From Candidatus Saccharimonadota bacterium (lineage in GTDB: Bacteria > Pseudomonadota > Gammaproteobacteria > Johnevansiales > Johnevansiaceae), in NCBI RefSeq assembly GCF_000300075.1, contig NC_018677.1:210001-242000 (forward strand): a stretch of 32,000 nucleotides of DNA, in the 5' to 3' direction. Shown here one piece after another: positions 1-32,000 of this stretch; the stretch's first letter is position 1; each line of letters begins with the position of its first letter. A program made the position numbers and the translations under genes. The notes under the pieces are model-generated. The model did not search any database and was not told the DNA's origin. It saw only the letters and a list, made by a program, of their open reading frames with translations.

Positions 1-556
1 AAATTTTACTATTTTAAGCATTGACAAATTCCCTCAAATGACAGATTATATTGTACCAAATAATGTAAGAATAGCAGAACCATCAAGGATACGTTTAGGT
101 GCTTACTTAGGTGAAGGTACCACAATTATGCATGAAGGATTTTGTAATTTTAATGCAGGAACAATGGGAACTTGTATGATAGAAGGACGTATTTCTTCTG
201 GCGTCTTTATAAATAAAAATTCTGATTTAGGAGGGGGTTCTTCAATTTTAGGAACATTGTCAGGAGGAGGTAAGCTTGTAATATCACTGGGTAAAAATTG
301 TTTAATAGGAGCTAATGCTGGATGTGGTATACCTTTGGGTAATAGCTGTATTATTGAAGCAGGATTATATATAACGGCAAGTTCTAAAGTATCAGTTTTA
401 AATAGAAAAAACATACTTATTAAAATAGTAAAAGCAAAGGTATTAGCGTATAAAAACAATTTGTTATTTTTAAGAAACTCAGTTACAGGAGCGATAGAAT
501 GTCGTATAAATAAAAAAGTAATCAAACTTAATAAAGAGTTACATAAACTTTTTTAA
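1..556 (+). CDS. dapD: Tetrahydrodipicolinate N-succinyltransferase (DapD), 5' end outside the window
   Basis: The frame is open from nt 2 (NFTILSIDKFPQ before the first ATG at 38). DKFPQMTDYIVP...RLGAYLGEGTTIMHEGFCNFNAGT...EGRISSGVF...DLGGGSSILGTLSGGG...LIGANAG matches my recollection of E. coli DapD from its DKFPKMTDYVVP segment to the C-terminus, with the hexapeptide-repeat pattern. Stop TAA at 554-556. Confidence 0.9.
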   Translation, partial: NFTILSIDKFPQMTDYIVPNNVRIAEPSRIRLGAYLGEGTTIMHEGFCNFNAGTMGTCMIEGRISSGVFINKNSDLGGGSSILGTLSGGGKLVISLGKNCLIGANAGCGIPLGNSCIIEAGLYITASSKVSVLNRKNILIKIVKAKVLAYKNNLLFLRNSVTGAIECRINKKVIKLNKELHKLF

Positions 557-557
557 A

Positions 558-1712
558 ATGTATTATCTTTTAAAACTAGTATTAAATTTACTTTCAAAAA
601 ACTCTATTACACCTAATGACAAAGGATGTCAATATTTGCTTAGTAATATATTTAAACGTTTATGTTTTCGTGTAGAAGTTTTTAATAAAAAAGGAGTTCA
701 TAATTTATGGGTTACAAACGGATTTTGTAAAAAAACATTGTTATTTGTTGGTCATACAGATGTAGTTCCTTCAGGCCCAATTAAAGCATGGGAAATTAAC
801 CCGTTTTTACCTTATTTAAATAATAGAGGATATATTATATCACGTGGAATTGTCGATATGAAAGGTAGTTTATGTTCAATGATAAAAGCAACATGTAATT
901 TTATAAAATTATATCCAAAATCTAAAGAGAAAATAGCTTTTTTAATAACAAGTGATGAAGAAGGTGATGGAAATTATGGTACTAAATATGTTATAAATAA
1001 GTTAATAAAAAGAAATGAAATAATAAATTATTGTATTATCGGTGAGCCTACTAGTAAATCAAATACAGGTGATACTCTTAAAATAGGTAGACGAGGTTCA
1101 TTAAATGCCAAAATAATAATATACGGTATTCAAGGACATATAGCGTATACAAAACAATTGCTAAATCCAATACATATATTAATTAATATAATACATTATT
1201 TATTAAAAATTAGATGGGATAAAGGTAATAAATATTTTTCTAAAACCAGTTTTCAAATATCCAACTTCATTGCAGGATTAGGTGTAAGTAATATGTTACC
1301 TAAATACGCAAAAGTATTATGTAATTTTAGATTTTCAAATGAACTTACAGTTAATAAAATTAAAACCAAAGTAAGTAACATATTTTTACTGTTTAATTTA
1401 AACAAAAAAAAAGATTTTAAAATCAATTGGTATCTATCTGGAGAACCATACCTAACAAAAAAAGGTACTTTGTTAAATGCTGTAATTTTTGGAATTAATT
1501 ATATGTGCAAAATACAACCAAAAAAAAATACAAATGGTGGCATATCAGATGGTAGATTTGTCAAAAATCTTTGTAAACAAATAATTGAGTTAGGCTTAAT
1601 AAATGCCACTATACATAAAATAAATGAATGTGTTTGCGTTTCTGATATTATACTATTAACAAAACTGTATCAACTTATCATTGAATATTTGTTTATTTAT
1701 AAATTTAAATAA
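558..1712 (+). CDS. dapE: Succinyl-diaminopimelate desuccinylase (DapE, M20 peptidase)
   Basis: 384-aa ORF with the M20 metal-ligand motifs in order: VGHTDVVP, RGIVDMKG, ITSDEEGDG, IIGEPTS and a C-terminal ATIHKINE. It starts 1 nt after the dapD stop. Confidence 0.9.
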   Translation: MYYLLKLVLNLLSKNSITPNDKGCQYLLSNIFKRLCFRVEVFNKKGVHNLWVTNGFCKKTLLFVGHTDVVPSGPIKAWEINPFLPYLNNRGYIISRGIVDMKGSLCSMIKATCNFIKLYPKSKEKIAFLITSDEEGDGNYGTKYVINKLIKRNEIINYCIIGEPTSKSNTGDTLKIGRRGSLNAKIIIYGIQGHIAYTKQLLNPIHILINIIHYLLKIRWDKGNKYFSKTSFQISNFIAGLGVSNMLPKYAKVLCNFRFSNELTVNKIKTKVSNIFLLFNLNKKKDFKINWYLSGEPYLTKKGTLLNAVIFGINYMCKIQPKKNTNGGISDGRFVKNLCKQIIELGLINATIHKINECVCVSDIILLTKLYQLIIEYLFIYKFK

Positions 1713-1714
1713 GA

Positions 1715-1787
1715 TGGAGCCAAGGAGGCTTGAACTCCTAACCTCCTACATGCAAAGCAGGCGTTCTTCCAATTGAACTATGGCCCC
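1715..1787 (-). tRNA. tRNA-Ala (anticodon UGC), no encoded CCA
   Basis: The reverse complement reads GGGGCCATAGTTCAATTGGAAGAACGCCTGCTTTGCATGTAGGAGGTTAGGAGTTCAAGCCTCCTTGGCTCCA. I folded it by hand into a cloverleaf: 7-bp acceptor stem with the G3:U70 alanine identity pair, anticodon loop TTTGCAT (UGC), T-loop TTCAAGC and discriminator A. Confidence 0.9.
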
Positions 1788-3463
1788 AATAAGTTTATTA
1801 TAGCAAATTTTGTATTTCCTATTTGTAACAAATAGTTTTTATTAAGTAATATATTATAATTTGAATTAATTGTTATATTATTAATTCTTAGTTTCTTATT
1901 TTTCAATAAGTCTTTTGCTTGTGAGTTATTTTTAACTAAGCCTAATTTATTTAATATATATATTATTGGAGCTTTTTTAACTGTATTGATTATTATTTTT
2001 AGCTTAGGAATATTTATAGGGACGTAATTATTAGTAACTTTATTTCCTATAAAGTTTGATGCTTTTTTTGCTATTTGTTTTTTATAACAATATGTTATTA
2101 ATTCAATCGCTAATTTACGTTTTAGTTCTCGTGGTTTAGGTTTTATTCTCAGATTATTATGTATGTGTTTGTTAGTTGTTTTGATATTAGAAGTGTGAGT
2201 GTATTTATTAAAAATTCCATTTTGGTTAATATGTTTGTATGTATTTTTATGTATGTCTGCGTTTTTATTTGATTGTATATATGCGTCTGTATATATGTCT
2301 TTATGTTTTTTTATAATTGTATCTGCATTTGTATATGTTTTTTTTCTTGGTTTTTTGTTTGAATATGAATTATGTTGGTATTTGTTTTTTGTTTTTATGT
2401 AGATTTGTTGTTTAATATTGCTTGCATCATACATTTTAAATTGTGATTCTTTTTTTGTTTTAATTATTTCTTTATTTTTTATTTGTTTAGTTGTATTTGT
2501 TTTGTTGTGTTTTGTTTTAAGTAATTTATGATTTTTGATGTATTGGTGTTTAATTTTAATAGATTTATGTTTTCTGTTAATTGCTTTAAGACAAAGGTTG
2601 TATCTGTGTTTAAGTAAAATAGAGTAATGATTTTGGATGTGTTTGGGTTTTTGTTTTGGTTTTGTTTTAATAGATAATAAAGTTAAATATTTATAAATTA
2701 AATTATCATTAATAGAAAAAAGTTGTCTATACATATCTCCTGGTTTATCTTTGTAATTTATACAATTATTTAGAGATTTAGACATTTTGTGTTCGCCATC
2801 AGATCCTTCAAGAATAGGCATAGTGAGTATATTTTGAGGCTCTTGATTAAAAATCTTTTGCAATTCTCTTCCTATTAAAAGATTAAACAATTGATCATTA
2901 CCTCCTATTTCTATATCTGCTTTAAGAACTACTGAGTCATAAGCTTGTATTACGGGGTATATAAATTCATGCATTGAAATATTATAACCACTTTTATATC
3001 TTGTATTAAAATCATTTCTCTCTAACAATTTATATATTGTTATTTTGGAAAAAATATTAAGAAGCCTAAATAAAGATATTCTTTTTAACCACTCTGAATT
3101 AAATAAAACTTTCAACTTTTTAGGATCTAATAATTGACGAATTTGTTGTTTACATTTTATTGCGTTTATTTTAGTTTGTGCTTTAGTCAAAATATTTCTT
3201 GTTGCATTTTTTCCTGTTGGATCACCTATGATTCCCGTAAAATCACCTAAAAGAAACAATATATTATGGCCTAATTGTTGTAATAGTTTTAATTTTTTTA
3301 TCAAAACAAAATGACCTAAATGTAAATTAGGAGTAGTAGGGTCTATACCTATTTTAATATTTAATATTTTTTTTGATTTAATTTGCTTTTTAAATAGTTT
3401 TTCAATTAAAAATTTGTTTGTATTAAATTTAATTTGTTTTAAAATTACGTTTATAGTATTCAT
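1778..3463 (-). CDS. tyrS: Tyrosine--tRNA ligase (KMSKS-type, TyrZ-like) with a large internal low-complexity insertion
   Basis: HIGH motif (PNLHLGH), GDFTGIIGDPTGK, GGNDQLFN, KMSKS (GEHKMSKS), a helical-domain motif (PRELKRKLAIELI) and a C-terminal S4-like domain. It is 561 aa, versus about 400 aa for this subfamily as I recall. The TAG stop at 1778-1780 lies inside the tRNA-Ala gene. Confidence 0.85.
   Translation of the reverse strand: MNTINVILKQIKFNTNKFLIEKLFKKQIKSKKILNIKIGIDPTTPNLHLGHFVLIKKLKLLQQLGHNILFLLGDFTGIIGDPTGKNATRNILTKAQTKINAIKCKQQIRQLLDPKKLKVLFNSEWLKRISLFRLLNIFSKITIYKLLERNDFNTRYKSGYNISMHEFIYPVIQAYDSVVLKADIEIGGNDQLFNLLIGRELQKIFNQEPQNILTMPILEGSDGEHKMSKSLNNCINYKDKPGDMYRQLFSINDNLIYKYLTLLSIKTKPKQKPKHIQNHYSILLKHRYNLCLKAINRKHKSIKIKHQYIKNHKLLKTKHNKTNTTKQIKNKEIIKTKKESQFKMYDASNIKQQIYIKTKNKYQHNSYSNKKPRKKTYTNADTIIKKHKDIYTDAYIQSNKNADIHKNTYKHINQNGIFNKYTHTSNIKTTNKHIHNNLRIKPKPRELKRKLAIELITYCYKKQIAKKASNFIGNKVTNNYVPINIPKLKIIINTVKKAPIIYILNKLGLVKNNSQAKDLLKNKKLRINNITINSNYNILLNKNYLLQIGNTKFAIINLLGP
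2140..2670 (-). other. In-frame G-depleted (sense strand) K/N/T/H/Q/I/Y-rich expansion segment inside tyrS
   Basis: The protein stretch IKTKPKQKPKHIQNH...NKHIHNNLRIKPK lies between the conserved LTLLS and PRELKRKLA blocks. The + strand here is T/G-rich and C-poor, which is the same composition as the intergenic spacers. Boundaries are approximate. Confidence 0.7.
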
Positions 3464-3508
3464 AATAATTATGTTTAAACTTAAATATATGTATGGGGTA
3501 TAAACTAA

Positions 3509-4090: not shown

Positions 4091-4141
4091 AAATATAATT
4101 ATATAATATAATAAAAAAAAAATAAGGCATAAATAAAAATT

Positions 4142-4951
4142 ATGATAAAAATAATTGTTTTAGGATCTATGGGTCGTATTGTAAAATTATTAATTAAAAC
4201 GATAAAAAAAGATAAAAACATAAAGTTAGTAGGTGCCGTAATAAATCCAAACCATAAATTAATTGGAATAGATATTGGAGAAATAATAGGGTTAGGTAAA
4301 ATAAATATAAAACCAGTTGGCAATATAAACGATGTAAAAACTAATTTTGATACAATAATAGATTTTACTAATCCAAAAATAACTTTACAAAATTTAGAAT
4401 ATTGCTCTAAAAGTTTTAAAACAAATAGTAATTGGTACAACAGTTTAAAAAACAAAACAAAAAAATAAAATTATTTAAAGATAAAGTACCTTTTTGTGTT
4501 AACAGCTAATATGAATATTTGTGATAATGTTGTATAAAAATAAAGAAAAAGTATGACAAAAAAACTAAAAAAAAAAGATTTTGATATAGACATTATTGAA
4601 TATCATCATCGTAATAAGATAGATTATCCTTATGGTACAGCATTAAGTATAGGTAAACAAATAGCAAAACTTATAGGCTACAAATTAAATACTATTAAAG
4701 TTTAAAACAAAACAGGTCCACGTATAAAAAATACAATAGGATATTCAATTATTAGAGCTGGAGAAATAATAGGAGAGCATAAAATACTGTTTACTTCAAA
4801 ATCTGGTGAAGTAATTGAGATTAATCATAAAGTAACTAATAGACTAGTATTGGCTTATGGAGCATTACTTGCAGCAAAATGGATAAAAAACAAAAAAAAT
4901 GGGTTTTATAATATGCAAGATGTACTTAAAGAGGAAAATAAATTTGTATAA
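4142..4951 (+). pseudogene. dapB: Dihydrodipicolinate reductase (dapB) pseudogene
   Basis: A DapB-like N-terminus (MIKIIVLGSMGRIV...IIDFTNP) runs to about 4430. The IVIGTT block is then in another frame, and 4440-4552 has several frameshifts and stops. A C-terminal block from 4553 (DIDIIEYHHRNKIDYPYGTA...IGYSIIRAGEIIGEHKILF...INHKV) is interrupted by an in-frame TAA at 4703-4705 and ends at TAA 4949-4951. The position directly upstream of carA matches the canonical dapB-carAB order. Confidence 0.85.
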
Positions 4952-6026: not shown

Positions 6027-6040
6027 TGGAAGAGTTAATT

Positions 6041-9750: not shown

Positions 9751-9794
9751 AATATATTAATGTTAAATAACTTAATAAGTTTGTATTTTTATAT

Positions 9795-11891: not shown

Positions 11892-11907
11892 TCATATGTA
11901 TTTTAAA

Positions 11908-11981
<74 letters not shown>

Positions 11982-12454
11982 CATACTTACTTGTTTCCCT
12001 TTACATTTGTTTGATTTTTAACATTAATTACAAAACATTAATCATAAACCCTTTATCATAAGAACTTTAAATTTTTAACATACAGCTTAAACTTTTTATT
12101 ACATATATCCTCTCTTTATATCTACTCTTAAACTCAACACTAATCATACAACATATATATACTTAATGAAGATAACACAAAAAAACATCTAACAACAGCA
12201 AATTTATAACAACAAAAAAATACTCCATCCATTAACGAGAAAAAAATATAAAAAACAATAAAAAAATAACAGAACATATAACAAAGAACAAAAAAAACAA
12301 AGAACATAATAAAAGGATAAAGAAATACAAAAAATATAATCAGATCAGATAACATAAAAAAGAAGAAAAAGTACTTAGCAGAAAACACAATAAAAAGCAA
12401 GAGCAAAAAAAACATAAAAAGGTTATTTGCTTATACATTAGCATTAGGAAATGT
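11982..12454 (+). other. Strand-skewed gene-free spacer S1: G-poor A/C/T part, then an A-dominated part
   Basis: There is no credible ORF; the only one listed is an F-rich antisense artefact at 12140-12415. From 11990 to about 12170 there is almost no G. From about 12170 to 12454 the sequence is mostly A, with some G and C. The spacer fills the slot where rimP lies in relatives. Confidence 0.8.
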
Positions 12455-13588: not shown

Positions 13589-13748
13589 AATTATTTGGAA
13601 GAGATTGTATATGTTCCTATTGAAGACTTTTTAAAAATAAAAAAAATAAATATAAATGTAATACAAAAATTTAAATCACGTGCATTTGATGAATTGCTAA
13701 AATTAGCAATGAACTAAAAAATGAAATACAATATTATGGAGAAACATA

Positions 13749-16040
13749 ATGGTAGAAATAACTGTTAAAGATTTTGCAAATAAACTAGGATGTAATACAA
13801 AGAGGTTAATAAGTTATTTAACAAATGCCGGTGTAAAAAATAAAAAGGCTGAGAATTTATTAACAGAAAAAGATAAACAAACTTTATTAACTTATCTATT
13901 TTATAAACAAGGTATAACTAATTTTTATTTAACTAGAAAAAAATATAGTAAGCTACATATGAATAATAAAGTAATTGATATTCAAATATGCAAAAACAAG
14001 ACTTTTTTAAACTTAGATACAGAAGAAATAGAAAGAAATAAAAACTATAATCGTATTTATAATATACAATCAAACAAGAAATTAATTGACATACATACTT
14101 TTAAAAATCACAAAACAAATATTATTAGAGAAATAAATATTTATGAATCTAATAGTCTTTTAGATTTAGCTAAAAAGTTGGCAATAAAAGCAGCCGACTT
14201 AATGAAAGCTTTGTTAAGGATTTGTGTTTTAGTTAATATAAATCAACCAATTAGCAAAGATTCAGCTTTTTTTGTTGTAGAAGAACTAGGCCACATACCA
14301 AAAAATATTAATGTTACTGATAATGATTTTGAAGATCTTTTACTTAATACAAAAACCAGAATTCATAATACTAAAAACATAAATACACAAAAAGTTGATA
14401 AACAGAAAAACAACAATCACAATACAAACAAGAACAAACAACATACTAAACCTAGTAAAAAAAAATATATAAATAACAATTCAAATACTAACAAACAATA
14501 TACAAAAATAAAAGCTAAAACTATTAACGCATTTAGCGCTGGTAAATATTTTAAACGCTGTCCAATAATTACTGTAATGGGTCATGTAGACAATGGTAAA
14601 ACCTCTTTAATTGATTTAATTCGTAATTCTAAATTAGTCAATAACGAAATAGGAGGTATTACTCAATATATAGATGTTTATCATGTTAATTTAGATCAAG
14701 GAAATAACATCACAATAATTGACACTCCAGGTCATAAAGCATTTATAAATATGCGTAAAACTGGTGTAAAGTTTACAGATATAGTTATCTTAGTTGTTTC
14801 AGCTGATGATGGTATAAAACCTCAAACTATTGAAGCAATAGACCATGCTAAAACTCTAAAGCTACCTGTAGTTGTTGCTATTAATAAAATTGATAAAATA
14901 GGAACAGATATCGGTCGCGTGCGTAATCAGTTATCTAAGTTTGGTCTTATACCTGAAGAATGGGGAGGAGAAACTTATTACATTCCAGTTTCCGCAAAAG
15001 TTGGTTTGGGCTTAGATTTGTTATTAGAATCAGTACGTTTTATATCAGAACTTATAGATTTAACTACAGTATTAGATTCTCCAGGTATAGGGGTAGTAAT
15101 AGAATCTAGAATAGATGTAGGAAAAGGACCTGTAGCTAAAATTTTAGTTTTAAATGGTACTTTAAAGAAAGGTGATATAGTATTATGTGGTTTGCATTAT
15201 GGTAGAGTACGTGCAATAATAAATCATTTAGGAAACATTGTTGAGCAAATAGGTCCTTCTATACCTGCAGCAATTATTGGATTTAATGGTGTTCCAGAAG
15301 CTGGCGAACAATTTAATGTAGTATCAGATGAAAAAAAAGCACGTGAGATTGTTAATAATCGTTCTATAAAATATATAAATAACAAACAAAAAACTAATCT
15401 TATTCAAGATATTTTAAAAAAAATAAACACTATCAATATTGTACTTAAAGCGGATGTGCAAGGAACATTACACGCATTACGTACTTCTATAAAAGAATTA
15501 TCTAACGATCAAATTGTTCTTAACATAATATCAGCTAGTGTTGGAAATCTTAACTCAAATGATGTTAATTTAGCAATTATATCAAAAGCAATCTTAATCG
15601 GTTTTAACGTACAAGTAGTAAGTAAAGCTAGAGATCTTATTGAACGTGAGCATATAAAGTTCTTTTATTTTAAACTAATTTATAAATTCATTGATGGTCT
15701 AAACGAAATAATACATAAGACATTAAATCCTAAAAAAATCGAAGATATTATTGGTATTGCTGAAATTCGTGATACTTTTAAATATAACAAAAAAAATGGA
15801 GTTATCATTGGATGTATAGTATTAAAAGGGAAGGTTGTACGCAATAAAAAAATACGAATTATTCGTAATAATGACATTATTTATAAAGGCGATTTAGTTT
15901 CGTTACGTCGTTTTAAAAAAGATGTTAATGAAGTTAGTACTGGCTTAGAGTTTGGTGTTTGTCTTCGTGATTTAAACGATGTTAAGGTTGGTGATAGAAT
16001 CGAAATTTTTGATCTCATTACATGTAACAACAAACTTTAA
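13749..16040 (+). CDS. infB: Translation initiation factor IF-2
   Basis: GGAG lies 8 nt upstream of the ATG. The G domain has MGHVDNGKTSLID, DTPGH and NKID, followed by domains with VLKADVQGTLHAL and a C-terminal beta-barrel. 763 aa. Confidence 0.95.
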   Translation: MVEITVKDFANKLGCNTKRLISYLTNAGVKNKKAENLLTEKDKQTLLTYLFYKQGITNFYLTRKKYSKLHMNNKVIDIQICKNKTFLNLDTEEIERNKNYNRIYNIQSNKKLIDIHTFKNHKTNIIREINIYESNSLLDLAKKLAIKAADLMKALLRICVLVNINQPISKDSAFFVVEELGHIPKNINVTDNDFEDLLLNTKTRIHNTKNINTQKVDKQKNNNHNTNKNKQHTKPSKKKYINNNSNTNKQYTKIKAKTINAFSAGKYFKRCPIITVMGHVDNGKTSLIDLIRNSKLVNNEIGGITQYIDVYHVNLDQGNNITIIDTPGHKAFINMRKTGVKFTDIVILVVSADDGIKPQTIEAIDHAKTLKLPVVVAINKIDKIGTDIGRVRNQLSKFGLIPEEWGGETYYIPVSAKVGLGLDLLLESVRFISELIDLTTVLDSPGIGVVIESRIDVGKGPVAKILVLNGTLKKGDIVLCGLHYGRVRAIINHLGNIVEQIGPSIPAAIIGFNGVPEAGEQFNVVSDEKKAREIVNNRSIKYINNKQKTNLIQDILKKINTINIVLKADVQGTLHALRTSIKELSNDQIVLNIISASVGNLNSNDVNLAIISKAILIGFNVQVVSKARDLIEREHIKFFYFKLIYKFIDGLNEIIHKTLNPKKIEDIIGIAEIRDTFKYNKKNGVIIGCIVLKGKVVRNKKIRIIRNNDIIYKGDLVSLRRFKKDVNEVSTGLEFGVCLRDLNDVKVGDRIEIFDLITCNNKL
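14345..14525 (+). other. G-poor N/K/T/Q/H low-complexity segment inside infB, just upstream of the G domain
   Basis: NTKTRIHNTKNINTQKVDKQKNNNHNTNKNKQHTKPSKKKYINNNSNTNKQYTKIKAKT is encoded almost entirely by G-free codons. The composition matches the intergenic spacers. Boundaries are approximate. Confidence 0.6.
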
Positions 16041-17644
16041 CATTTATTTATCCCTTTTTATTTACTACATATTTCACTTCATATTCTATTATTTATACAG
16101 ATTCCATAAAACTGCTTTTACTACTTCAACTCATTTACAATTTCATAATTATAACTACATTTAAAACTACTAAAATTCAAACTACCACTACTATTTTTTT
16201 TAAATTCAATATAAGAATTTTTAATACAAACCACAATTACAAAATACCAAAAGCATTTTACACCTAGAGCATTAAACACCTTTAATTTAACCAACACCAT
16301 AACTCAACCACAACACAAATACTAATCCTATAATTACAACACACAAATATTTTTTTTTAACAACAATATTTTACACACAATACAAACAGTTAATACCTTT
16401 TTATCAACCTACATCCTTTAGCACAAAACACATACTAATTTACCTTTTTTTTCATCATATATCACAAACAAATTTAAAACAACATAACAACTTATTTACG
16501 CCTACAATCAACTTATACATACTTATTATGCATACTTCATACACTTTATTTTCTTAATTAATACATATAACTCATATACTACCGCTTTTATCCTCTCACC
16601 TCATATAACAACATTACACTATTAATTAAAAGATATAACACAAATATCAAACACACTCAAGTTAACACCTAGCATCTAAAATCAAAACAACATCTAATAC
16701 CAATACAAAACACACATATTTTTAAACTAATAATATTTATATCATAAAACATAAAGTAAGTAAGAATACATAACCAAACCTCTAACAAAAAAAAAGTAAT
16801 GTTTTAGAGAAAAAAATAACACTTCTAAAGAACGAAAAGTAATAAACAAAAATACAACATAAAACGTATAAAAATACAGTTAAAAGAAAAAATAACTTTG
16901 ATTTAAAATACATACAAAATCATAATAACTAAATATAAAACACAAACATATTACAAAACCTATTACACAAATACATCAAATTAAACTACATATGTTAAAA
17001 AATATAACGTACTTATACAAAGCTTCAATAAAAAACATACCATAAAACAACATTATAACTACTAAGAAACATTATTTAAAGTTATACAATACATTATTTA
17101 AAACTAAATAACAAAAAGTACATAATCAAATTATATAAAACACCATGTTAATAAAAATTTTAAATTTAAAACTAATACAACAGTTAAACTTAGAATAATA
17201 ATATATCAACTATTTAAACATACATCTTAAAAATCAATAAAACCACTACTACAATACAAAAATAATTAGTTAAAATCGTACAACTTTTACAATAATATTT
17301 AAAAAAAATAAAAAGAAATACAACAAATTTTTAAAAACATCTACAAACTAATATTTAACAATAAATACATAAAAAATAAATAACAGAAAAACAAAAGTAT
17401 CAGTTTACAACATCTTAAACAACTCTAAAAACATAAGAAATTAAAATAACAAAACATAGAACAATTAAGTAAATTAATATAACTAAAGTATAAACCACAA
17501 AAAGTGTTGTATATAAAAAGAATGAAATGAAGAATGAAATAAAAGAAACAGATACATAATAGAAAACATATTACGAAAATAAACAAAAAATAAAAATGCA
17601 AACAAGTAACTTGTAAAATTAATAACGGTTTAATATATATTATT
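16041..17644 (+). other. Strand-skewed gene-free spacer S2, inside the nusA-infB-rbfA operon
   Basis: 1.6 kb with no ORF of 60 aa or more after 16164 on either strand. By hand count there are only about 12 G in 16201-16740 (540 nt), while C is abundant. From about 16740 to 17644 the sequence is mostly A. Confidence 0.85.
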
Positions 17645-17971
17645 ATGATTAGTTATCGTCTTGTAAAAGTTTCAAAACAAATTAAAAGAAACTTAACGCA
17701 ATTAATAAACTACAATTTAAATGATCCACGAATAAAAAAAAATATTATAATACATTCTGTAAAACTTAGTAAAGACCTCAGTCTTGCTGATATATATTGG
17801 ACTCTTTTGTATGATAACAAATTTAAAAATATATATGAAAGTATATTACAATTAGCTTCTGGTTATTTGCGGTATAAGCTTTCTAAAACTATAAAAAACC
17901 ATCATGTACCCATTTTAACTTTTCATTTTTATGATTCTATTACAATTACTTCTTCTTTCATTTCTGAGTAA
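17645..17971 (+). CDS. rbfA: Ribosome-binding factor A
   Basis: 108 aa with R..KVSKQIKRNLTQLI...DPRI...IHSVKLSKDLSLADIYW...ASGYLRYKLSK....VPILTFHFYDS, which is the RbfA family pattern. It is in the conserved position after infB. Confidence 0.85.
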   Translation: MISYRLVKVSKQIKRNLTQLINYNLNDPRIKKNIIIHSVKLSKDLSLADIYWTLLYDNKFKNIYESILQLASGYLRYKLSKTIKNHHVPILTFHFYDSITITSSFISE

Positions 17972-18142
17972 ACATTTCTTTTTATTAACATTCCCTTTAC
18001 AATATAACTACTACACACCCTTACCATATAAATGTAATATCTACAATCTAAATAATAACAACTAATAAACAAACCTCTACCTTTTACAATTCAATTACTG
18101 CTTAACTAACACATAACTTCTATTTCTTTAACTTTTACCTCT

Positions 18143-18172
18143 AACAACAACAACAACAACATCATCATCATC
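18143..18172 (+). repeat. Trinucleotide microsatellites (AAC)6 followed by (ATC)4
   Basis: Read directly: aacaacaacaacaacaac at 18143-18160 and atcatcatcatc at 18161-18172. Confidence 0.95.
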
Positions 18173-18470
18173 TTAATATCTTCTCCTTACATCCAACACC
18201 TACCAGCAACTTCTATCATCTACTACCAATTCTTTTCTTTTTTTTACAACCTCTTCCCTCCCCTTTTCTCTATTATCTAAACCTTTTATCTAGCTTCTTT
18301 ACTTCTTCGTATAACATCTTTAAACATTCCTTTCTTTTTGTACAACTTCTTCTCTATATTTTTTTTTATTACATATAACTCTTCACGGTTTATCAACAAC
18401 TAATCACAAACAAAATAACCTCTAACTTTAAAACAAACAATTATCTTTAAAAACAAACATCTATCTACTA

Positions 18471-18573
18471 ATCTAACATCTAACATCTAACATCTAACTG
18501 ATAACCTAACACCTAACACCTAACACCTCAAACCTCAAACCTCAAACCTCAAACCTCAAACCTCAAACCTAAC
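18471..18573 (+). repeat. Compound heptanucleotide tandem array: (ATCTAAC)4, (ACCTAAC)2-3, (ACCTCAA)6, ACCTAAC
   Basis: Read directly: ATCTAAC x4 at 18471-18498, ACCTAAC x2 at 18511-18524 preceded by a partial copy, ACCTCAA x6 at 18525-18566, and ACCTAAC at 18567-18573. Confidence 0.95.
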
Positions 18574-19210
18574 AACTCTAACCTCTAACAAATAAAAAAC
18601 AACCACAAAACTCTAAAAGCTTTTAAACTTTACTTAACTCAAAACTCATACCCTCTAAACACAAAAGCAACAATTTTAACCACAAACCTCTTTTTTTTTA
18701 CATCTAACTCTTATTCAAGCTACCTCTAACAAACAAAGCTCTATTTACACAATACTTTAACTCAAATACAACAAATCTTATCTAAACACTTACCACAAAC
18801 TTTATAATAACTTTACCTCTATTAAATCAATAACATATACATAACATACAACAATAACCACAACAACATACTTTAGAAAACAGAGCACATAAAAAAAAAA
18901 CAGAAGCTAACATATAATGCTAAAAAAGAACAAATAACACATAAGCTAACGTATATGGCTAAAAGAAGTACCGTATAAAGTTAAGAACAATAAAACAGAA
19001 ACCGGTATAATATCCATCAGTAAAAAAAAAAGAACCAAACAAAAACCAAAACAGATATAAAAAGAACAAAAAAATAGGATGATAACGGAAAAGAAGTGAT
19101 AAAAAAAAAAGGACAAAAAGAGTTTAAATAGGTAGACAGTAGTTGTGTACTATGGATGATAAAAAGATTTTATAAAAGGTGCAAAACCGTTATAAAAAAA
19201 AGCGAATCAA

Positions 19211-21622: not shown

Positions 21623-21633
21623 AATCTTTTAAC

Positions 21634-22623: not shown

Positions 22624-22625
22624 TT

Positions 22626-22973: not shown

Positions 22974-22997
22974 TATTTTTTTTCTCCAATCTTTTAC

Positions 22998-23189: not shown

Positions 23190-23197
23190 ATTTAAAC

Positions 23198-23743
23198 CTA
23201 ATTGTGTTTTTTTGGTGTAATCATCATTGTCATTTGTTTACCTTCCATTTTTTGTTTAGATTCTACCATTATTAAATCTTTTAAATCGATTAAAATACGT
23301 TCCATTAATTTTTTTCCTAATTCTTTATGTGCGATTTCTCGTCCTCTAAAACGTATTGTAACTTTACTACGATCTCCTTCCTCTATAAACCGCATTAAAC
23401 TTTTTATTTTTACTTTATAATCACTTTCAGACGTGACCGGTCTAAATTTTATTTCTTTAACATTATTTTTTTTTTGTGCAGATCTTTGTTTTTTTTTTTC
23501 AAATACAAATTTTCCATAATCCATAATTTTACATACTATGTAATCAGAACTCTTATAAATTTGCACTAAATCTAAACCTGATTCTTCTGCTTTGTTTCTA
23601 GCTTCATTTATAGATACTATACCTAATTGTTCACCTTCTTTACCAATCAAACGTACTTTAGTAGCACTTATATTTCTATTTATAGGGGCTTCTTTTAATC
23701 GATTAGTTTTATTTATTTTACGTCTCCGTAGATTATATTTAAT
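23198..23743 (-). CDS. infC: Translation initiation factor IF-3, probable AUU start
   Basis: The core sequence is [28 protein letters not shown]...LDLVQI...[10 protein letters not shown]...IKEIKFRP...DYKVK...[18 protein letters not shown]. The conserved INRNI..VRLIG block lies upstream of the TTG used by the ORF track. The frame is open to a TAA at 23786-23788 and has no in-frame ATG. ATT at 23743-23741 gives 181 aa, matching the length of E. coli IF3. The exact start is uncertain; in-frame ATA codons at 23749 and 23716 are alternatives. Confidence 0.85.
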
Positions 23744-23821
23744 TTTTATATTTAAATTATAACAAAGTTTGTTATAAAAGATATATTAACTTATATTATA
23801 AATAGTACAATTTAATTTGTT

Positions 23822-25503
23822 ATGAAAAACATACCTAATTTAGATAAAAACTTTATACATAGAGCTTGGGCATTAATTAAGCCTTATTGGTGTTCTGATG
23901 AACGTTGGATTGCTTTGAGCTTACTTTCAATTTTAAGTGTTATTGGCAGTATATGGTTTAATAGTTTGAATAATGATTTAAATCATGCACTTCAAAAATT
24001 TGAAAAACAAAGAGTTTTGGCATTTAAACATGCAATTTGTTTTTATTGCTTCATTTATGCTTCTTTTATCTATTTATAGGTATTATTTTACTAACTTATT
24101 AACATTAAGATGGAGAATATGGTTAACGAAGCTTAACTTAAATTTATGGATATCATCTAAGACGGTTTATAAGTTAGACCTAAATAATAATACTGATAAA
24201 CGTATTACTGAAGATATTGATAGATAAACTAGTGCTACTTTAAAATTATTAATTAGTTTACTTACCTCATGAATTACACTTCTTAGTTTTATAAGTATTT
24301 TATGTTACGTATCAGGGATAATAAACATTGTAATTAATATACAGGCACGTGCATATTTTGTATGGATTGCAATATTATATTCTGTTATAAGTCAGTTTTT
24401 TTTTCAGTTTATTGGACAAAAAATAAGAAAAATTAATATTATACAACCTTTATTAGAAGCAAATATGCGTTATGAAATGACTAGAATAAGAGAAAACAGT
24501 TAAAGTATTAATTTATTAAAAAATAATATTAGGGATATGAAACAAAAAAAGATCAAAATTTTTAAATAATTGTTTTTAAATAATTCGTAAACAAAAACGC
24601 TTAATATGTTAAAAGTCTGGCTTAAATCAACTTTCAATAATATTTCATATGCTAACTGCTGCTCAAGTTTATTTTAAATATAGTAATAACATTGGAACAT
24701 TCATTCAAATATCAAATGCTTTTAGTCAAGTACAAGGAGCTTTAATTTTGTTTACTAATAGTTAGTTTGAACTTACGAAATGGAAAACCGTAATTGATAG
24801 ATTGACTTGATTTATAATTGAAATTAATAATATAAGAAATACTTCAAATATTCACCGTAAACTTATATTATCTGAAAATACAGATGTTTATATAAAAACC
24901 GCTAAAATTAAATTACCTAAAGGAAAAAAAAAATATATATTTCTAATTTTGTTATAAGAAAAGGAGAACATACATTAATAACAGCACATTTAGGTGTTGG
25001 AACAAGTATTTTTTTTATACTTTATCTGGTGTTGTTGGTTGTTGGTTGTTGGTGTTTTGTGGCAGTGAATTATTAATATGCCAACTTCTACTTTATTTTT
25101 AATAGAAAAACCGTATTTAGCTATTGATTCTTTAAGACAAGTTATAGCATATCCAAATAAGGTAAAATATTCTTCTCAAAAAAACATGGAATTAATATTT
25201 AAATTATGTAAAATGGATACATTAATCAATGAACTTGATTGTGTTTGTAATTGGGCACAAATATTTTCTGGAAGAGAGCAACAAATAATTTATTTTGCAA
25301 GAGCTTTAATTAGTAAACCAAAATTGAAATTTTTTGATAGAGCCAGTTCATTTTTAGATATAGAAATTGAACAATATCTTTATGATGTATTAATCAATTA
25401 TTTACCTACTACTACTTTAGTTATTTTTTCTCACAAACGTAGTGATTATAAATTTCATGTAAGGATTGTAGATTTAAGAACTTTAAACCAATATGCGCGC
25501 TAG
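23822..25503 (+). pseudogene. YddA/SbmA-BacA-type ABC transporter (fused TMD-NBD) pseudogene
   Basis: Family-like blocks (NNNTDKRITEDI, compare NPDQRI.ED; EANMRYEMTRIRENS; SNAFSQVQGAL; WKTVIDRLT) are spread over at least three frames. They are interrupted by in-frame TAA (24225, about 24499), TGA (about 24270, about 24809) and TAG (about 24763). Walker A has decayed to ITAHLGVGTS (lysine lost), the signature to FSGREQQ, and Walker B to FFDRAS (the D-E pair lost). The last 141-aa ORF (25078-25503) is only the decayed NBD tail. Confidence 0.8.
25031..25051 (+). repeat. (GTTGTTG)3 heptanucleotide repeat inside the ABC pseudogene
   Basis: Read directly: gttgttg gttgttg gttgttg, flanked by partial copies (ggt before, gtg after). 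It sits between the decayed Walker A region and the downstream LFLIEKPY block. Confidence 0.9.
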
Positions 25504-27178: not shown

Positions 27179-28428
27179 CTTTCAACGACTTTTTTTTTTT
27201 ATGTTTATATTTAAACTCGCTAATTTATACTTTTTTACTTACCTGTTCCTTCTTTTCTGTTCTTTCTTTTTTTTTATACATCTACTAATAACAACCTGAC
27301 TATATTGCACTTATATAACATATTTCTATGTATAATTTTGTTTTTTATGATTTTAATAACTTATTAAGAAATGTTTTAAATCTATTTTGTTATGCTATAT
27401 TTCTTATACTATAAAATTAGATGTTGTATTATATTAGATCTTCTTTTATATATTTTGGTGGTTAGTAGTTATTGTTTTATGCCTTATGTTTATGCTTTAT
27501 ATTAAATTATCTGCCTTATGTTAGTTATTGTTTTATGTTCTGTGCGGTTATGTTTAAAACTTTTTTATGCTTTTGGTACTTTTTTGCTGTGTGTTATTTT
27601 TATTTGTGTTTTATTTGTAATATTTCTTTTTTTTTACTCTTTTAATTTGTTGTATTTAGTGTCCTGTTTTATTTTGTGTGTTTTAAATGTTTTATGATTT
27701 TTGTGCATTTTTTCTAGTTACTTTTATTTTTATTTGTAATTTTTTTGTTAACTTTTTTACTATTAGTTTTTATGTTTTTAACTAAATTCTGTTTTTGTTA
27801 TGCTTTTTAAACTTAAATTTTGTTATAGTATAGTTGTTTTGGATGATGTTAATGTACTTTATATATATTTATTTTGTTGTGTATTGTTTTGTATTTATTT
27901 TCTTTGTGATATCTTTTGTTTTGTAGTTTTAAATTAATATTAAATTTTTAGCTATTGTGATATACTTTTTATCAACTTTTTATGTGAATTATATATGATG
28001 TATTTTTCATTTGTTTTTAGTGTTGTATTATACTCAATATTTAGGTTTAACATGGATTATGTGTTATGTGATTATTTGTTGAGTATTGTTATTTGTTAAT
28101 ATAGTAAATAAATTACAGCTGTTTTGTGTTATAAGTATTGTGTAAAATAGATATTATGTTATTGGGTAAATGTAAGCGTAATTTGTGTAAATAGTGTTGT
28201 GTGGATATGTGTAATTTGTTTAGTAAAGTGTTAAAGGAGTTGTGATTAGAGTTTGTTGTTAGGGGTAGTATATCTTGTATTATATCTATTGTATGTTGTA
28301 GGATAAATGGTTAGAGAAAGTGGTAAATTAGTAGGTTTGTGTAAGCAGTTTGTGTTGGAGCTTAAAAAGAATAAAAATGTTTGTTAATAATGTTTGATAT
28401 AAAAAAAAAGCAAAAGGCATAAATAAAA
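27179..28428 (-). other. Strand-skewed gene-free spacer S4 (proS to aroQ, convergent genes), G-poor on the minus strand
   Basis: The + strand is T/C-rich from 27179 to about 27330, then T/G-rich and C-poor to 28428. Read in the aroQ sense this gives an A/C-rich segment followed by an A/G-rich segment. There are no ORFs. A local duplication with a period of about 56 nt is present (tagttattgttttatg at 27466-27481 and 27522-27537; gccttatgt at 27481-27489 and 27513-27521). Confidence 0.8.
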
Positions 28429-28857
28429 TTACGATTTAATCAAATAGTTTAATGCAGAAATATAACCATAAACACCCAGGCCAGATATAATTGCATTAGC
28501 TCGTTTAGAAATAAAAGAAGTATGACGAAAAACTTCACGATTATAAATGTTAGAAATATGAACTTCTATTATTAAACCATTAAAAAGCGTTAATGCATCT
28601 AATATAGGAATACTAGTATGAGAATATGCCCCTGCATTTATAATAATAGAATTACAATTAATATAGTAAGCTCTGTGAACAATGTCGATTATATACCCCT
28701 CATGATTAGATTGATAACATTCTAAGTTTACGTTAAATCTTTTTGCTTTTTTTATCATAAATCTTTCTATATCTTGTAATGTATTATATCCGTATATATT
28801 AGTTTGTCTTTTTCCTAAATAATTTAAGTTAGGTCCGTTTATTAAAAATATTTTCAT
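28429..28857 (-). CDS. aroQ: 3-dehydroquinate dehydratase, type II
   Basis: 142 aa with the type II DHQase pattern: ILINGPNLNYLGKR...YG, QSNHEGYIID, INAGAYSHTSIPILDAL and EVHISNIY.RE.FRH.S. Confidence 0.9.
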   Translation of the reverse strand: MKIFLINGPNLNYLGKRQTNIYGYNTLQDIERFMIKKAKRFNVNLECYQSNHEGYIIDIVHRAYYINCNSIIINAGAYSHTSIPILDALTLFNGLIIEVHISNIYNREVFRHTSFISKRANAIISGLGVYGYISALNYLIKS

Positions 28858-28871
28858 AACTTTTTTATACC

Positions 28872-30170
28872 TTATACTTTTTTATGTTTATAATAACGTA
28901 AACCTTTGCTTGTATCATATTGATTTTCCCATTTTGAAACAATCAGAACAGCCAAAGCATTACCAACAACATTTAAAACAGTTCTAGCCATATCTAATAT
29001 TCGATCTACACCTGCTATAAAAGCTATGCCTTCTATTGGGATGCCTATACTTCCCAATGTAGCTAATAAAACTACAAACGATACCCCTGGTATTCCAGCG
29101 ATGCCTTTAGATGTTATCATTAATGTTAAAATTAATGTAAGTTGTGTAAATAAAGTTAGCTTAATTCCATAAAGCTGTGCTATAAACAACGCAGCAATAC
29201 TTTGATACAACGTTGAACCATCCAAGTTAAATGAATATCCAGTAGGAATAACAAAGTTACAAATAGTTTTTGGTGCACCATAATTTTCCATTTTAGCCAT
29301 TAAATTCAACAATACTGATTCAGAACTTGACGTAGTAAAGGCTAACAATATTTCATCTTTAAGAATGTGTAACAAGATAAGTATATTAAATCCAAAAAAC
29401 CAAGCAATACTGCCCAAAATTATAAATATAAAAAATATTATTGTAAAATATACTAAAACAACTAACTTTATTAATGGTATTAAAGATAAAACGCCAAAAT
29501 TTGCAACAGTATTAGATATTAAAGAAAAAACACCAATAGGTGAAAACCGCATAATAATACTTGTAACATTAAACATAGTCTCAGAAATTGTTTTTATTAT
29601 ATTTATAAATAAATTTTTATTTTTAAAAGGAAGACCTGACAAACCTAAACTAAAAATTACAGAAAAAAATATAATAGATAAAATATTTCCAGTTACAAAC
29701 GATTGAAATATATTTGAGGGTATTAACTCAACTATAATATTCAAAATATTTGTGTGTTCTTTCTTCTGAATGCTATTTGAAAAATCTTTATATTGTGACA
29801 GATCAATATTATTACTTAAACTAGACATATTTATTCCATAGCCCGGTTTAAATATATTCGCTGATATTAAGCCAACCAATATTGCTAATGTTGTAACAAG
29901 TTCAAAATACAAAATTGTTTTAAGTCCAATTCTACTTAGATTTTTTGTATTATCAATTCCAGAAATACCAATTATTAATGAAGTAAGAATTATTGGAACT
30001 ACTATCATTTTAATTAACCTAATAAAAATTTCTCCTAATGGTTGTAAAACGTTTATAAGTACCCAAGATTTAATATAGTTGTTTTGATGTAATATTAAAC
30101 CTGTAATTATTCCAAAACATAAACCTATTATTATTTTTAATGCCAAATTTTTTGATTGAATTATTTTCAT
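28872..30170 (-). CDS. gltP: Glutamate/aspartate:cation symporter (DAACS family)
   Basis: 432 aa, alignable by eye along most of its length to my recollection of E. coli GltP: IRLIKMIVVPI, SETMFNVT, SSSESVL, VIPTGYSFNLDGSTLYQSIAALFIAQLYGI, SKGIAGIPGVSFVVLLATLGSIGIPIEGIAFIAGVDRILDMARTVLNVVGNALAVL. Confidence 0.9.
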   Translation of the reverse strand: MKIIQSKNLALKIIIGLCFGIITGLILHQNNYIKSWVLINVLQPLGEIFIRLIKMIVVPIILTSLIIGISGIDNTKNLSRIGLKTILYFELVTTLAILVGLISANIFKPGYGINMSSLSNNIDLSQYKDFSNSIQKKEHTNILNIIVELIPSNIFQSFVTGNILSIIFFSVIFSLGLSGLPFKNKNLFINIIKTISETMFNVTSIIMRFSPIGVFSLISNTVANFGVLSLIPLIKLVVLVYFTIIFFIFIILGSIAWFFGFNILILLHILKDEILLAFTTSSSESVLLNLMAKMENYGAPKTICNFVIPTGYSFNLDGSTLYQSIAALFIAQLYGIKLTLFTQLTLILTLMITSKGIAGIPGVSFVVLLATLGSIGIPIEGIAFIAGVDRILDMARTVLNVVGNALAVLIVSKWENQYDTSKGLRYYKHKKV

Positions 30171-30514
30171 TTTTTTCTAATTCTTTTTTTTTTATATTAT
30201 GCTTTTAAGAGTATTATACACAAAAACAAATCATATTTTAATAATTCCGCTAATAAAGTTTTTTTTGTATTGTCTTTTAAATAATTATACAGATTGTAGT
30301 TAGAATTTAAACTAACTAGGGTCTGATTTGTATTTATTCATTAAGTTGTAAAATTTTATTGTATTTATTACTTTTAATTTATAAGTGTTGATCGTTACTG
30401 TGTTTTTTACTTCCTTTTTATAGTTTTATTTTTGTTTTGCTCTATGTTTTTTATTGCTGTTATTTTGTTGTTATTTCTGCTTCTTTTGTTTATCTTTTTA
30501 TTTGTTATATTTAT

Positions 30515-30553
30515 ATTGTTATTGTTATTGTATTTGTAGTTGTAGTTGTAGTA
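30515..30553 (+). repeat. Hexanucleotide microsatellites (ATTGTT)2.7 and (GTAGTT)3
   Basis: Read directly: attgttattgttattg at 30515-30530, and gtagttgtagttgtagta at 30536-30553. Confidence 0.9.
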
Positions 30554-31199
30554 TCCGTTTGTTAGTATTTGTTTCATGTTATTATCTTGTTGATGTTATT
30601 AGTTAGGTTCTTGGCTTTTTATTAGTTGTTGATATTTTAAAAGTTTTTAGTATTTGTTTAGTTCAATTGATTAAAATATTTGTTGTTTTGTTTAATTGAT
30701 GTTTATAGTATTTTGTTTATAGGTGTTAGTTAAAGTTAAGATTAAAGTTTATATTAGTTTTTTTTGTTTTAAAACCTGTACAGTTATACAGTATTATAAA
30801 GAATTTAAAAGTTTTTATTTTTAGCTGGTAGTTTATTTGTTATTAGTTTGTTATAAGAGGTTTTGTTATTAGTTTGTTTTATATTATTTAAAGATTAAAG
30901 ATGTTTTGTTATTAGTTTAAAAGTTTTTAGATGTTTAATCTATATGTTATATAGTAAAAAAAATGTAGTTATTTTGTTGTTCTGTTATTAAATTTTAGAA
31001 GTTAGTAGTAGTAGTTATGTTGTTAGATATATGTAGTTATTTAAAAACTATTGTTGTTAAATATTAATTTGTATTAAGTTTATGTTATTTATTTATTTTT
31101 GTTTGTTTTATTATTCTGTTATTTGTTACTTAGTAGATAGTTGTAGTTATTTGTTTATTTGTAGTTAAAGGTTTAATGAACTATTGGTAGTTAGTTGTG

Positions 31200-31216
31200 T
31201 TTTTTTTTTTTTTTTT
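31200..31216 (+). repeat. T17 homopolymer (A17 in the gltP sense)
   Basis: Read directly: 17 consecutive T. Confidence 0.95.
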
Positions 31217-32000
31217 AAGACTTTGTTAAACAAAAAGACGCTAATATTTGTATTGTATAGACTAATGTATTTTGTTGTTGTTTGCTGTTGGCTGTTGATT
31301 ATTTATTTAATATGTGATGTGTAGTTTTTTATTGTTAGGTGGTTAAACTTATTTGTGCTAGTTGTTTATCTGTTGAATATTGATATGCATTTTTTTTTGT
31401 TTGTTTTGTAAACTGTTTACTGTTATTCTTGATATGTAATTGGTTTTATCTTTTGTAAGGTCTATTATGTATTTTTATATGTTTTTTAAAAAACAAATAA
31501 TTTATTGTTTGCTGTTGATTTTAATATATTTATTGTAAGGTTTTAGGTGTAGTGATATGCCTTTGTTTTTTTTTTTAGGTGTTGCTTTTTATGTGATGTT
31601 GTAAATTGTGTAATAAGTGAGATACTTTATCATATGCAATAATTTTGTATATTGTTATAATTTGTTAAAAAGATTTGTTGGGAGAGTTGAGATGGAAGAT
31701 GCTTAGTTAAAAGTTGTAAATTTGAATGTTGTAAGATACTGTGTTAAAAGTTTAATAATATTTTATATAAAGTGTAAGTTGTTTTGTTGTGAGCTGTGAG
31801 CGTTTAGTTGTTAATTTTTTAGAGTTTAGAGTTTTGTGTTGTTGTGGTTATTTGTTAGAGTTTTAAATCGTTGATTTTATCTGTTAGTTATTGTTTAGAG
31901 ATTTTGGGTTTTGAGGTTTCTTTTAAGATTTAAGCGGTTGCTTTTTTGAGTTTTTTTTTGTTAGTTATAGGTTATAATTGTTATTTAAATCTGTTAGTTA

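Follow-up and report, generated by a model that had tools for sequence, protein, structure and literature searches.

The 32,000-nucleotide stretch of DNA analysed here (the window; NC_018677.1, positions 210,001 to 242,000) comes from Candidatus Portiera aleyrodidarum, the whitefly Bemisia tabaci's obligate symbiont, and it carries five spacers (S1 to S5) and in-frame inserts in tyrS and infB in which one strand is very poor in G. We favour, with a probability of about one half, the reading that these G-poor tracts are lineage-specific low-complexity DNA made de novo by repeat expansion, and that they became oriented with genes through the seeds from which they grew and through filtering of the products. 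The tracts look like a by-product of runaway repeat expansion rather than purpose-built transcription stop zones.

Composition and origin of the lopsided tracts

In the five spacers and the tyrS insert, the G-poor strand is composed of 50-57% A, 15-27% C, 1-7% G and 21-33% T, and the excess of C over G is significant in all six tracts (binomial p 2e-4 to 1e-33). Across 12 skewed regions from two lineages the ranges are A 47-62, C 15-27, G 1.4-7 and T 18-33%, and the same composition is also found in the Portiera of Singhiella simplex. The longest G-free run is 137 nt and the longest C-free run 114 nt. Most 100-nt spacer windows are G-poor; among 199 such windows in coding sequence, the sense strand is G-poor in only 3 and skewed the opposite way in 14. 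As the original prediction had stated, it is the minus strand that is poor in G in the tyrS insert, the plus strand in S1 to S3 and the minus strand again in S4 and S5, giving two flips within the window.

The tyrS insert (2147-2662, minus strand) encodes 168 aa of low-complexity sequence rich in K, N, T, H, Q, I and Y, with 94 C to 22 G and a sense composition of A57 C18 G4 T21 (%); the infB insert (14367-14528, plus) is likewise G-poor and of low complexity, with ~54 aa (A102 C26 G6 T28 nt). S1 (11983-12454, plus; 71 C to 33 G) lies between tRNA-Met and nusA and consists of a G-poor core (11983-12300) followed by an A-rich leader in which G returns. Between infB and rbfA, S2 (16041-17644, plus; 264 C to 64 G) has G-poor cores at approximately 16041-16740 and 16900-17450. 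S3 (17972-19210, plus; 282 C to 65 G) separates the convergent genes rbfA and pheT. Its core (17972-18875, plus) starts at the rbfA stop, has 1.4% G and 27% C, and includes 7-nt arrays of ATCTAAC, ACCTAAC and ACCTCAA (18472-18589, plus). The S3 tail (18876-19210) is A/G-rich on plus, which makes it T/C-rich on minus directly downstream of the pheT stop, and the last window is G-poor on minus. S4 (27179-28428, minus; 188 C to 81 G), also flanked by convergent genes, has a core (27301-28428, minus; A52 C16 G5 T26) that runs from the aroQ stop in aroQ sense, and a proS-proximal end (27179-27300) that is T/C-rich and G-poor on plus directly past the proS stop. Finally, S5 occupies 30171-32000 of the window (309 C to 81 G on minus), upstream of gltP and in gltP sense; it runs on past the window to ~32871, beyond which the G-poor strand switches to that of metF sense as far as metF at ~33923.

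A polar layout that had been predicted for the spacers holds within the window: read in the sense direction, T/C-rich sequence gives way to A/C-rich and then to A-rich sequence with returning G, and T/C-rich stretches lie directly 3' of the infB, rbfA, aroQ, proS and ftsH stops.

Pooled four-fold degenerate sites from 27 genes (n=3170, sense strand) hold A 40, C 5.6, G 6.0 and T 48%, with T exceeding A on the sense strand of plus-strand and minus-strand genes alike. Measured against this baseline, the main anomaly of the tracts is a 3-4 fold enrichment of C together with an excess of A over T, and G depletion is the smaller effect. The description of the spacers as G-depleted is right about the strand skew and has to be amended in two respects: the gain of C exceeds the loss of G, and two spacers of the window are unskewed. 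One of these (4469-4898, plus; A47 C10 G15 T29) is dapB pseudogene debris, 87.5% identical to the intact dapB of the compact Portiera genome PeMo, and the other (23651-25077, 1.4 kb; A37 C10 G14 T39) contains ABC-transporter gene fragments. This comparison shows that the spacer DNA of B. tabaci Portiera is of two kinds, unskewed gene debris and strand-lopsided new DNA.

The lopsided composition stays with the inserted DNA and does not spread to its neighbours. Between S2 and S3 lies rbfA (17645-17971, plus), a 327-bp coding island of normal synonymous composition (four-fold sites A7 C2 G2 T21; position 3 against the flanking spacers, p=3e-6), and a normal island between two blocks speaks against a substitution bias of the region, be it tied to transcription or to replication. 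The tyrS insert has the block composition at all three codon positions. Its synonymous pyrimidine-ending sites are 41% C, compared to 14.7% in ordinary genes (p=1e-7); at such sites the infB insert also has 41% C. Since the synonymous sites of the inserts share the composition of the blocks, that composition travels with the inserted DNA, translated or not.

To place the blocks in time, we used the compact Portiera genomes PeMo (L013) and L030 as ancestral-type references. The infB-rbfA gap, 1604 bp in the window, is 8 bp in PeMo, and the tRNA-Met to nusA gap orthologous to S1 is 138 nt there. TyrS has 561 aa in the window and 393 aa in L030, alignment to which puts the 168 additional residues of the insert between LLSIKP and IKINPRE with KPK repeats at its bounds; infB encodes 763 aa in the window and 707 aa in PeMo. 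In L030, tsf, frr and dnaE are contiguous (0 bp). In the tsf-dnaE spacer of S. simplex (L022 3460-5884), an frr pseudogene lies in two halves that retain 76-86% identity with the intact frr of a compact Portiera and are separated, between nt 300 and 323, by a ~1.87-kb A/C-rich block that starts at an A/C-rich stretch of frr. Thus, as slippage would predict, the blocks are absent at orthologous sites in ancestral-type genomes. A short inverted G/T-rich segment was also seen near the 3' end of the S. simplex frr block. Compared between lineages by BLAST, the tsf-dnaE spacers gave only composition-driven 60% matches at every offset and no homology.

Repeat content and recent length changes point in the same direction. 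Relative to dinucleotide shuffles, 10-mer redundancy was in excess in 8 of 10 blocks (z=5-42; 17.8 in the S3 core), and Tandem Repeats Finder detected arrays. In the interval 8.8-19.25 kb, all indels between B. tabaci lineages fall within skewed blocks or the infB insert, and ordinary coding sequence has none. The 7-mer arrays of S3 differ among strains by copy-number indels of 7, 91 and 98 nt, S1 by a 12-nt indel between lineages, and the infB insert by a 15-nt, G-free, in-frame indel at 14510. The inserted segments are almost free of G on the G-poor strand of their block (one G among those listed). CP016304.1 (352,068 bp), which matches the window in reverse orientation, differs from it over 20 kb by a single 7-nt ACCTCAA unit. 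Close strains are therefore polymorphic for indels of unit length, as slippage would also predict, and because the blocks are in addition absent from the compact genomes, we conclude that they are new and still growing.

Published losses in the Portiera lineage include dnaQ, dnaN, dnaX, holA, holB, ssb, mutL and ruvC (PMC3673631, PMC5322561, PMC7821994). In the mechanism that we propose, the starting point is the published loss of dnaQ, mutL and ssb, along with the genes for the clamp and its loader, in the whitefly-symbiont lineage that includes the symbionts of Bemisia and Singhiella; short motifs made of A, C and T only (CTCTAAC, CATCTAA, ACCTCAA, runs of AAC or ATC) could then expand by repeated slippage or tandem duplication at gene ends, in the interiors of dying genes and in tolerant protein loops. 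On our data the blocks are low-complexity DNA grown de novo by slippage, and their lopsidedness (one strand ~A55 C18 T22 G4) is inherent to the amplified DNA and recopied with each new unit; the reasons why orientation follows genes are inferred. Seeds may have been drawn from the A-rich coding or leader strand, for example the KPK codons of tyrS or 'ccaaaattaaca' in frr, and the opposite orientation may have been filtered out: within open reading frames (ORFs) it would encode hydrophobic, stop-rich peptides, and in spacers reversed blocks would yield G/U-rich, structured transcripts with many starts and Shine-Dalgarno-like sequences that would escape Rho. As a side consequence, sense transcripts reading through a block would be unstructured, richer in C than G and similar to Rho-utilization (rut) sites, so that conserved Rho and NusG could silence them cheaply.

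Orientation relative to genes and competing explanations

The original prediction held that the G-poor strand is always the sense strand of an adjoining gene. Within the window the tyrS insert, S1 and S2 are informative on this and agree with it, and S5 is informative in part; S3 and S4 are uninformative because their flanking genes converge and a match is guaranteed, and exceptions occur outside the window. To extend the sample, we included 30 kb of flanking sequence from B. tabaci Portiera (L007/L026, L012), a related lineage (ERZ27294174 / SAMN13518550; L017, L023, L028; here the ERZ lineage) whose Rho, GltP and RbfA are 95%, 90% and 71% identical to the proteins of the window, and S. simplex Portiera (L022, CACTJB010000002.1, and L027). 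The tsf to dnaE spacer of B. tabaci Portiera is sense-oriented with the same gradient from T/C to A/C to A. The 3752-bp spacer between the divergent genes metF and gltP (L012 6249-10000) flips sharply at L012 ~7300, so that the G-poor strand of either half is the sense strand of the gene beside it, and the two halves share one motif family in inverted orientation. Eight further spacers also fit, four from the ERZ lineage and four from S. simplex. Among co-directional spacers, 7 of 9 are sense-oriented (p=0.09), and in 4 of 4 two-block spacers each block lies beside a co-oriented gene; the combined fit over the three lineages is 11/13 (p=0.011), with some cases orthologous and hence partly non-independent. 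Two blocks of the ERZ lineage, tsf to dnaE (L023 5050-5590) and hisH to hisF (L028 18848-20728), are reversed, with G/T-rich sense strands. Gene-oriented polarity is a tendency, significant but imperfect, and no rule.

The metF/gltP flip (L012 7150-7320, ~32850-33020 in window orientation) lies beside arrays of (TTATG)n, (GGTTTGT)n and (GGTTGTA)n. Many inverted repeats of 33-80 nt, 75-91% complementary, connect the two halves of this spacer and are likely a substrate for inversion or cruciform formation. In the ERZ lineage the metF/gltP spacer is a single block without a flip.

Several observations weigh against repeat expansion from oriented seeds as the whole explanation. The orientation statistic comprises 13 informative cases from ~130 kb, below whole-genome scale. 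S2 (z=-0.4) and S4 (z=2.8) are fully skewed without a clear excess of repeats; S2 appears to be old and degenerate, and for both spacers a duplication origin is deduced from the ancestral state only. Composition converges across lineages even though the motif families differ, which hints at a force acting on composition itself, by mutation or selection, beyond the inheritance of seeds, and slippage by itself fails to account for the prevalence of A/C-type over A/G-type low complexity. Lastly, a sugar-transporter pseudogene has gained 33 C and 14 G on its old sense strand, compared to 68 and 60 at intact third positions (p=0.057), a weak hint of asymmetric substitution specific to noncoding DNA. 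The convergence, the dominance of A/C and the skew that outlasts repeat decay in S2 and S4 leave room for such asymmetric mutation or for a filter based on Rho.

Much of what a role of Rho would require is present. The rho gene, the presence of which had been proposed as a check, lies ~10 kb to the left of the window, and Rho is found in every Portiera lineage recovered, compact ones included. The called protein has 416 aa, and its N-terminal 299 aa are ~80% identical to E. coli Rho end-to-end (1pv4, E=1e-145), with the RNA-binding motifs GFGFLR, YVSPSQIRRF and GERYFALL, the Walker A motif PPKAGKT and the Q-loop all kept in the alignment; judged from its sequence, Portiera Rho is apparently functional. 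A check on nusG had likewise been proposed, and PMC6699477 reports that these genomes have both nusG and nusA. The suggestion that the genome is too AT-rich for hairpin terminators agrees with our finding of three in the window (3.7 expected by chance), none at a gene end. Predicted minimum free energies per 100 nt are -1 to -3.7 kcal/mol for RNA of the G-poor strand, -9 to -14 for its complement, in which G·U pairs would allow folding, and -15 to -17 for mRNA. By the first step of RhoTermPredict (a window of at least ~78 nt, C>G, C every 11-13 nt; PMC6407284), 4-19% of the 78-nt sense windows of S1 to S5 are RUT-like, nearly all with C/G>=3, compared to ~0% in genes, in pseudogene spacers and on most antisense strands (5% on S3 antisense). 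By prediction, then, the tracts share RUT-like windows and unstructured RNA with rut sites, in a genome that encodes Rho and NusG, and read-through sense transcripts from the blocks would be excellent Rho substrates. By position, S1 to S4 lie downstream of a coding region, S5 lies upstream of both flanking genes, and the tyrS and infB inserts are translated.

Of the proposal that the spacers are Rho-loading zones, the part that stands is the presence of rho, nusG and nusA, the unstructured rut-like sense RNA and the lack of a hairpin excess; the part that finds no support is selection for oversized loaders. Rho loading is plausible as a consequence or a filter of the blocks. A bolder form, in which Rho acts as gatekeeper for junk DNA continually made by slippage in repair-deficient Portiera, we consider doubtful. 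If it were true, non-coding DNA should be polarized with its genes genome-wide, and the reversed blocks would be inversions of recent date that are being lost.

It is unlikely that the blocks are oversized, translation-silent zones selected to load Rho in place of hairpin terminators in an AT-rich genome. The Rho, NusA/NusG and terminator findings would suit such zones, as would the unstructured sense RNA, the RUT-like windows, C/G ratios of 2-4 per whole tract that are higher in the cores, and the T/C-rich stretches right past five stop codons; moreover, C at 16-27%, 3-4 times its neutral level, is hard to maintain without some force. However, the translated tyrS and infB inserts have the identical composition down to their synonymous sites, leaders of 1-2.7 kb lie upstream of metF and gltP and, in the second lineage, also of dapA, and one block sits inside the ancestral nusA-infB-rbfA operon, where loading of Rho would be polar and silence rbfA. 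Furthermore, 2 of 9 informative spacers are reversed, and the blocks, at 0.5-3.5 kb, are 10-40 times longer than the ~80 nt that a rut site needs. No alignment of the blocks between lineages is possible, and their rate of divergence is close to that of four-fold sites (in S2, 15/1604 or 0.9%, versus 7/719 or 1.0% at four-fold sites; small n). Compact Portiera have Rho but no such spacers, and per-site selection across kilobases would be implausible in a bottlenecked symbiont.

We regard as distinctly unlikely a strand-asymmetric point mutation process (C>T and A>G on the G/T-rich strand) driven by transcription or single-strandedness and acting on untranslated DNA in a genome without SSB and repair. 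It would account for the convergence on ~A55 C18 T22 G4 in three lineages with different motifs, for the skew of S2 and S4 after repeat decay and for the sugar-transporter pseudogene's weak bias toward new C over new G, and its A/C and G/T strands mimic the L/H asymmetry of animal mitochondria. Yet four-fold sites of co-transcribed genes have no excess of C over G and an AT skew of opposite sign (T>A), the rbfA island is normal, and pseudogene spacers of similar non-coding status are unskewed. Pooled counts of directional change in pseudogenes relative to intact orthologues (frr, dapB and the sugar transporter) did not differ from controls (p=0.39), although a gain of GC across the whole lineage of B. 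tabaci Portiera confounds this comparison. The sense-strand excess of A+C is also, as the original prediction had noted, opposite in sign to the usual transcription-linked signature, and reversed blocks exist. The null alternative offered alongside that prediction, a transcription-coupled mutational bias acting on junk DNA, is thus disfavoured by the four-fold sites, the rbfA island and the pseudogene spacers.

Two apparent substitution signals were discarded. In S4 and S5 (outgroup L029 to L010, L011 and L012), T>C and A>C changes seemed overrepresented, which proved to be repeat misalignment: the signal was produced by 32 clustered "substitutions" at L012 9015-9087, all in L010, and too few sites were left once these were removed. 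A divergence of 3.5% between the window and CP016343.1 of the China 1 lineage (L020) was rejected in favour of a true value of ~1%, the first kb of L020 being non-homologous; this comparison has three taxa and no usable outgroup. At synonymous third positions of seven genes shared by the window and PeMo (L013), we counted 182 AT>GC and 54 GC>AT differences, B. tabaci Portiera being much the GC-richer. This gain fits a mutation spectrum shifted after the loss of proofreading and mismatch repair.

Structural survivorship, in which only slippage products that cannot fold persist and the link to gene orientation is secondary or due to chance, is hard to credit. In an A/C versus G/T duplex neither DNA strand pairs with itself, so no hairpins, cruciforms or triplexes would form, which would matter in a genome lacking SSB as well as the recombination and repair functions by which structures are resolved, and reversed blocks and internal inverted segments do exist; on the other hand, it predicts neither the 11/13 orientation bias nor the sense-direction order T/C, A/C, A, and A/G-rich tails are also present.

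A replication leading/lagging skew scrambled by inversions can be set aside as very improbable: B. tabaci Portiera has undergone at least 17 inversions and has no clean GC-skew curve (PMC3673631, PMC5322561), and an inversion would flip genes and skew jointly, but the nine blocks over ~60 kb alternate (+,-,+,+,-,-,-,+,+ in record orientation) rather than keeping one sign along a replichore, one flip falls sharply inside the metF/gltP spacer, four-fold sites have no orientation-independent skew, the sign (sense C>G, A>T) would place nearly all genes head-on to replication, and the blocks post-date the gene order, because compact genomes lack them and their growth continues. The argument that two flips exclude replication skew accordingly held up in its substance, replication being a poor fit. 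Repeat expansion with oriented seeds and filtering is the reading that we favour.

Gene content and significance

In gene order, the window holds dapD and dapE (plus); tRNA-Ala and tyrS (minus); yggT, the dapB fragment, carA, carB, greA, ftsH, tRNA-Leu, tRNA-Met, nusA, infB and rbfA (plus); pheT, pheS, rplT, rpmI and infC (minus); the ABC-transporter fragments and proS (plus); and aroQ and gltP (minus). An Rfam scan of the window returned three tRNAs and nothing else, and a consensus promoter scan was uninformative in its AT-rich DNA (129 found, 156 expected). Packing is very tight in places, compared to kb-sized spacers elsewhere: tRNA-Ala (1713-1788, minus) begins one base past the stop of dapE (558-1712) and overlaps the 3' end of tyrS (1778-3463) by 11 nt. 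The ABC-transporter fragments (ABC_membrane_2 and an ATPase-like C-terminus) lie at 23822-24227 and 25078-25503, the last overlapping the proS start by 11 nt.

NusA has 377 aa in the window, 420 aa in the China 1 lineage (CP016343.1, L020 4796-6058) and 433 aa in PeMo; because it is shorter here than in these two, we read the 160 bp preceding infB (13589-13748) as dead nusA C-terminal coding sequence left by a recent truncation. The first 1000 nt of L020 gave no alignment to the carB of the window, and only a 202-aa ORF with an MGS domain is called there; carB in CP016343.1 may be truncated or rearranged, or the assembly differs. DnaE has 916-935 aa in all Portiera examined (L026 5878-8685; L022 5885-8659; L030 5977-8727), compared to ~1160 aa in E. 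coli, and since the short form is common to all of them, its shortening predates the loss of other DNA polymerase III subunits. ORFs of 59-87 aa without a Pfam match are called inside skewed blocks (window 16121-16300, equal to L001 8477-8656 on minus, and L028 9705-9968); these are probably artefacts of stop-codon-poor sequence.

Among tiny symbiont genomes, that of B. tabaci Portiera is the textbook exception, being about a third non-coding. The strand skew offers a simple sequence marker for the birth of de novo DNA in a bacterium, in a setting where the synonymous sites of neighbouring genes are free of the bias of the spacers. It points to a testable connection among runaway repeat expansion, the properties of transcripts and Rho, and if the orientation bias were true genome-wide, it would be a rare case of transcription or termination shaping which junk DNA a bacterial genome can carry. 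Skewed blocks also account for assembly breaks, spurious ORF calls and the absent GC-skew curve in Portiera genomes.

Relation to known systems

Large repeat-rich spacers, a spike of 7-bp indels and the lack of a clean GC-skew curve have been published for Portiera of B. tabaci (PMC3673631, PMC5322561, PMC7821994), which bears out the statement made with the original prediction that long repeat-rich spacers had been reported before. The published spacer work (2015 and 2020; PMC5322561, PMC7821994) concerns the same genome and the same spacers, associates spacer expansion with the loss of dnaQ, mutL, ssb, dnaN, dnaX and holAB, and reports the 7-bp repeat spike and indels that are reproduced here. 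In the searchable literature, we word-searched those three papers together with Zhu et al. 2019 on the spacers (PMC6699477) and the 2026 genome paper on B. afer (PMC12911140). These searches turned up no description of a block-wise A/C-versus-G/T strand asymmetry, of a division of spacer DNA into two classes or of any connection with gene orientation. A part of Supplementary Data S1 of PMC6699477, a set of conserved spacer stretches genome-wide, has A/C-rich and G/T-rich stretches among those listed, with the strand unstated there. The best reading of the skew is that it adds a new facet to the repeat expansion already known in Portiera.

The blocks resemble rut sites and Rho-dependent terminators in having more C than G, G-poor unstructured RNA and regularly spaced C, often right past stop codons, in a genome with Rho, NusG and NusA, and Borrelia, another AT-rich genome, likewise uses Rho regions of elevated C:G (PMC10319736). 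They differ in that rut sites are ~80 nt long, whereas Portiera blocks measure 0.5-3.5 kb, also occur upstream of genes and inside ORFs, and are in some cases reversed; termination at them is a prediction only.

The inserts in tyrS and infB recall the Asn/Lys-rich, low-complexity, hydrophilic protein inserts in the AT-rich genome of Plasmodium: both are in-frame, slippage-derived insertions, here rich in K, N, T, Q and H and placed in surface loops of essential proteins. Unlike those of Plasmodium, the Portiera inserts belong to a bacterial endosymbiont and share their nucleotide composition, synonymous sites included, with non-coding blocks.

Animal mitochondria, with an A/C-rich L-strand sequence and a G/T-rich H strand, have the same compositional signature on the majority sense strand. 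The mitochondrial skew, however, is genome-wide, present at four-fold sites and tied to replication, whereas the Portiera skew is block-wise, flips every few kb and leaves four-fold sites free. Transcription-associated asymmetry, known as C>T on the non-transcribed strand in E. coli and as an excess of G+T on the coding strand in mammals, is likewise oriented with transcription units, as is the skew in Portiera. Here the sign is opposite, with A+C in excess on the sense strand, and the skew is absent from the synonymous sites of the same genes.

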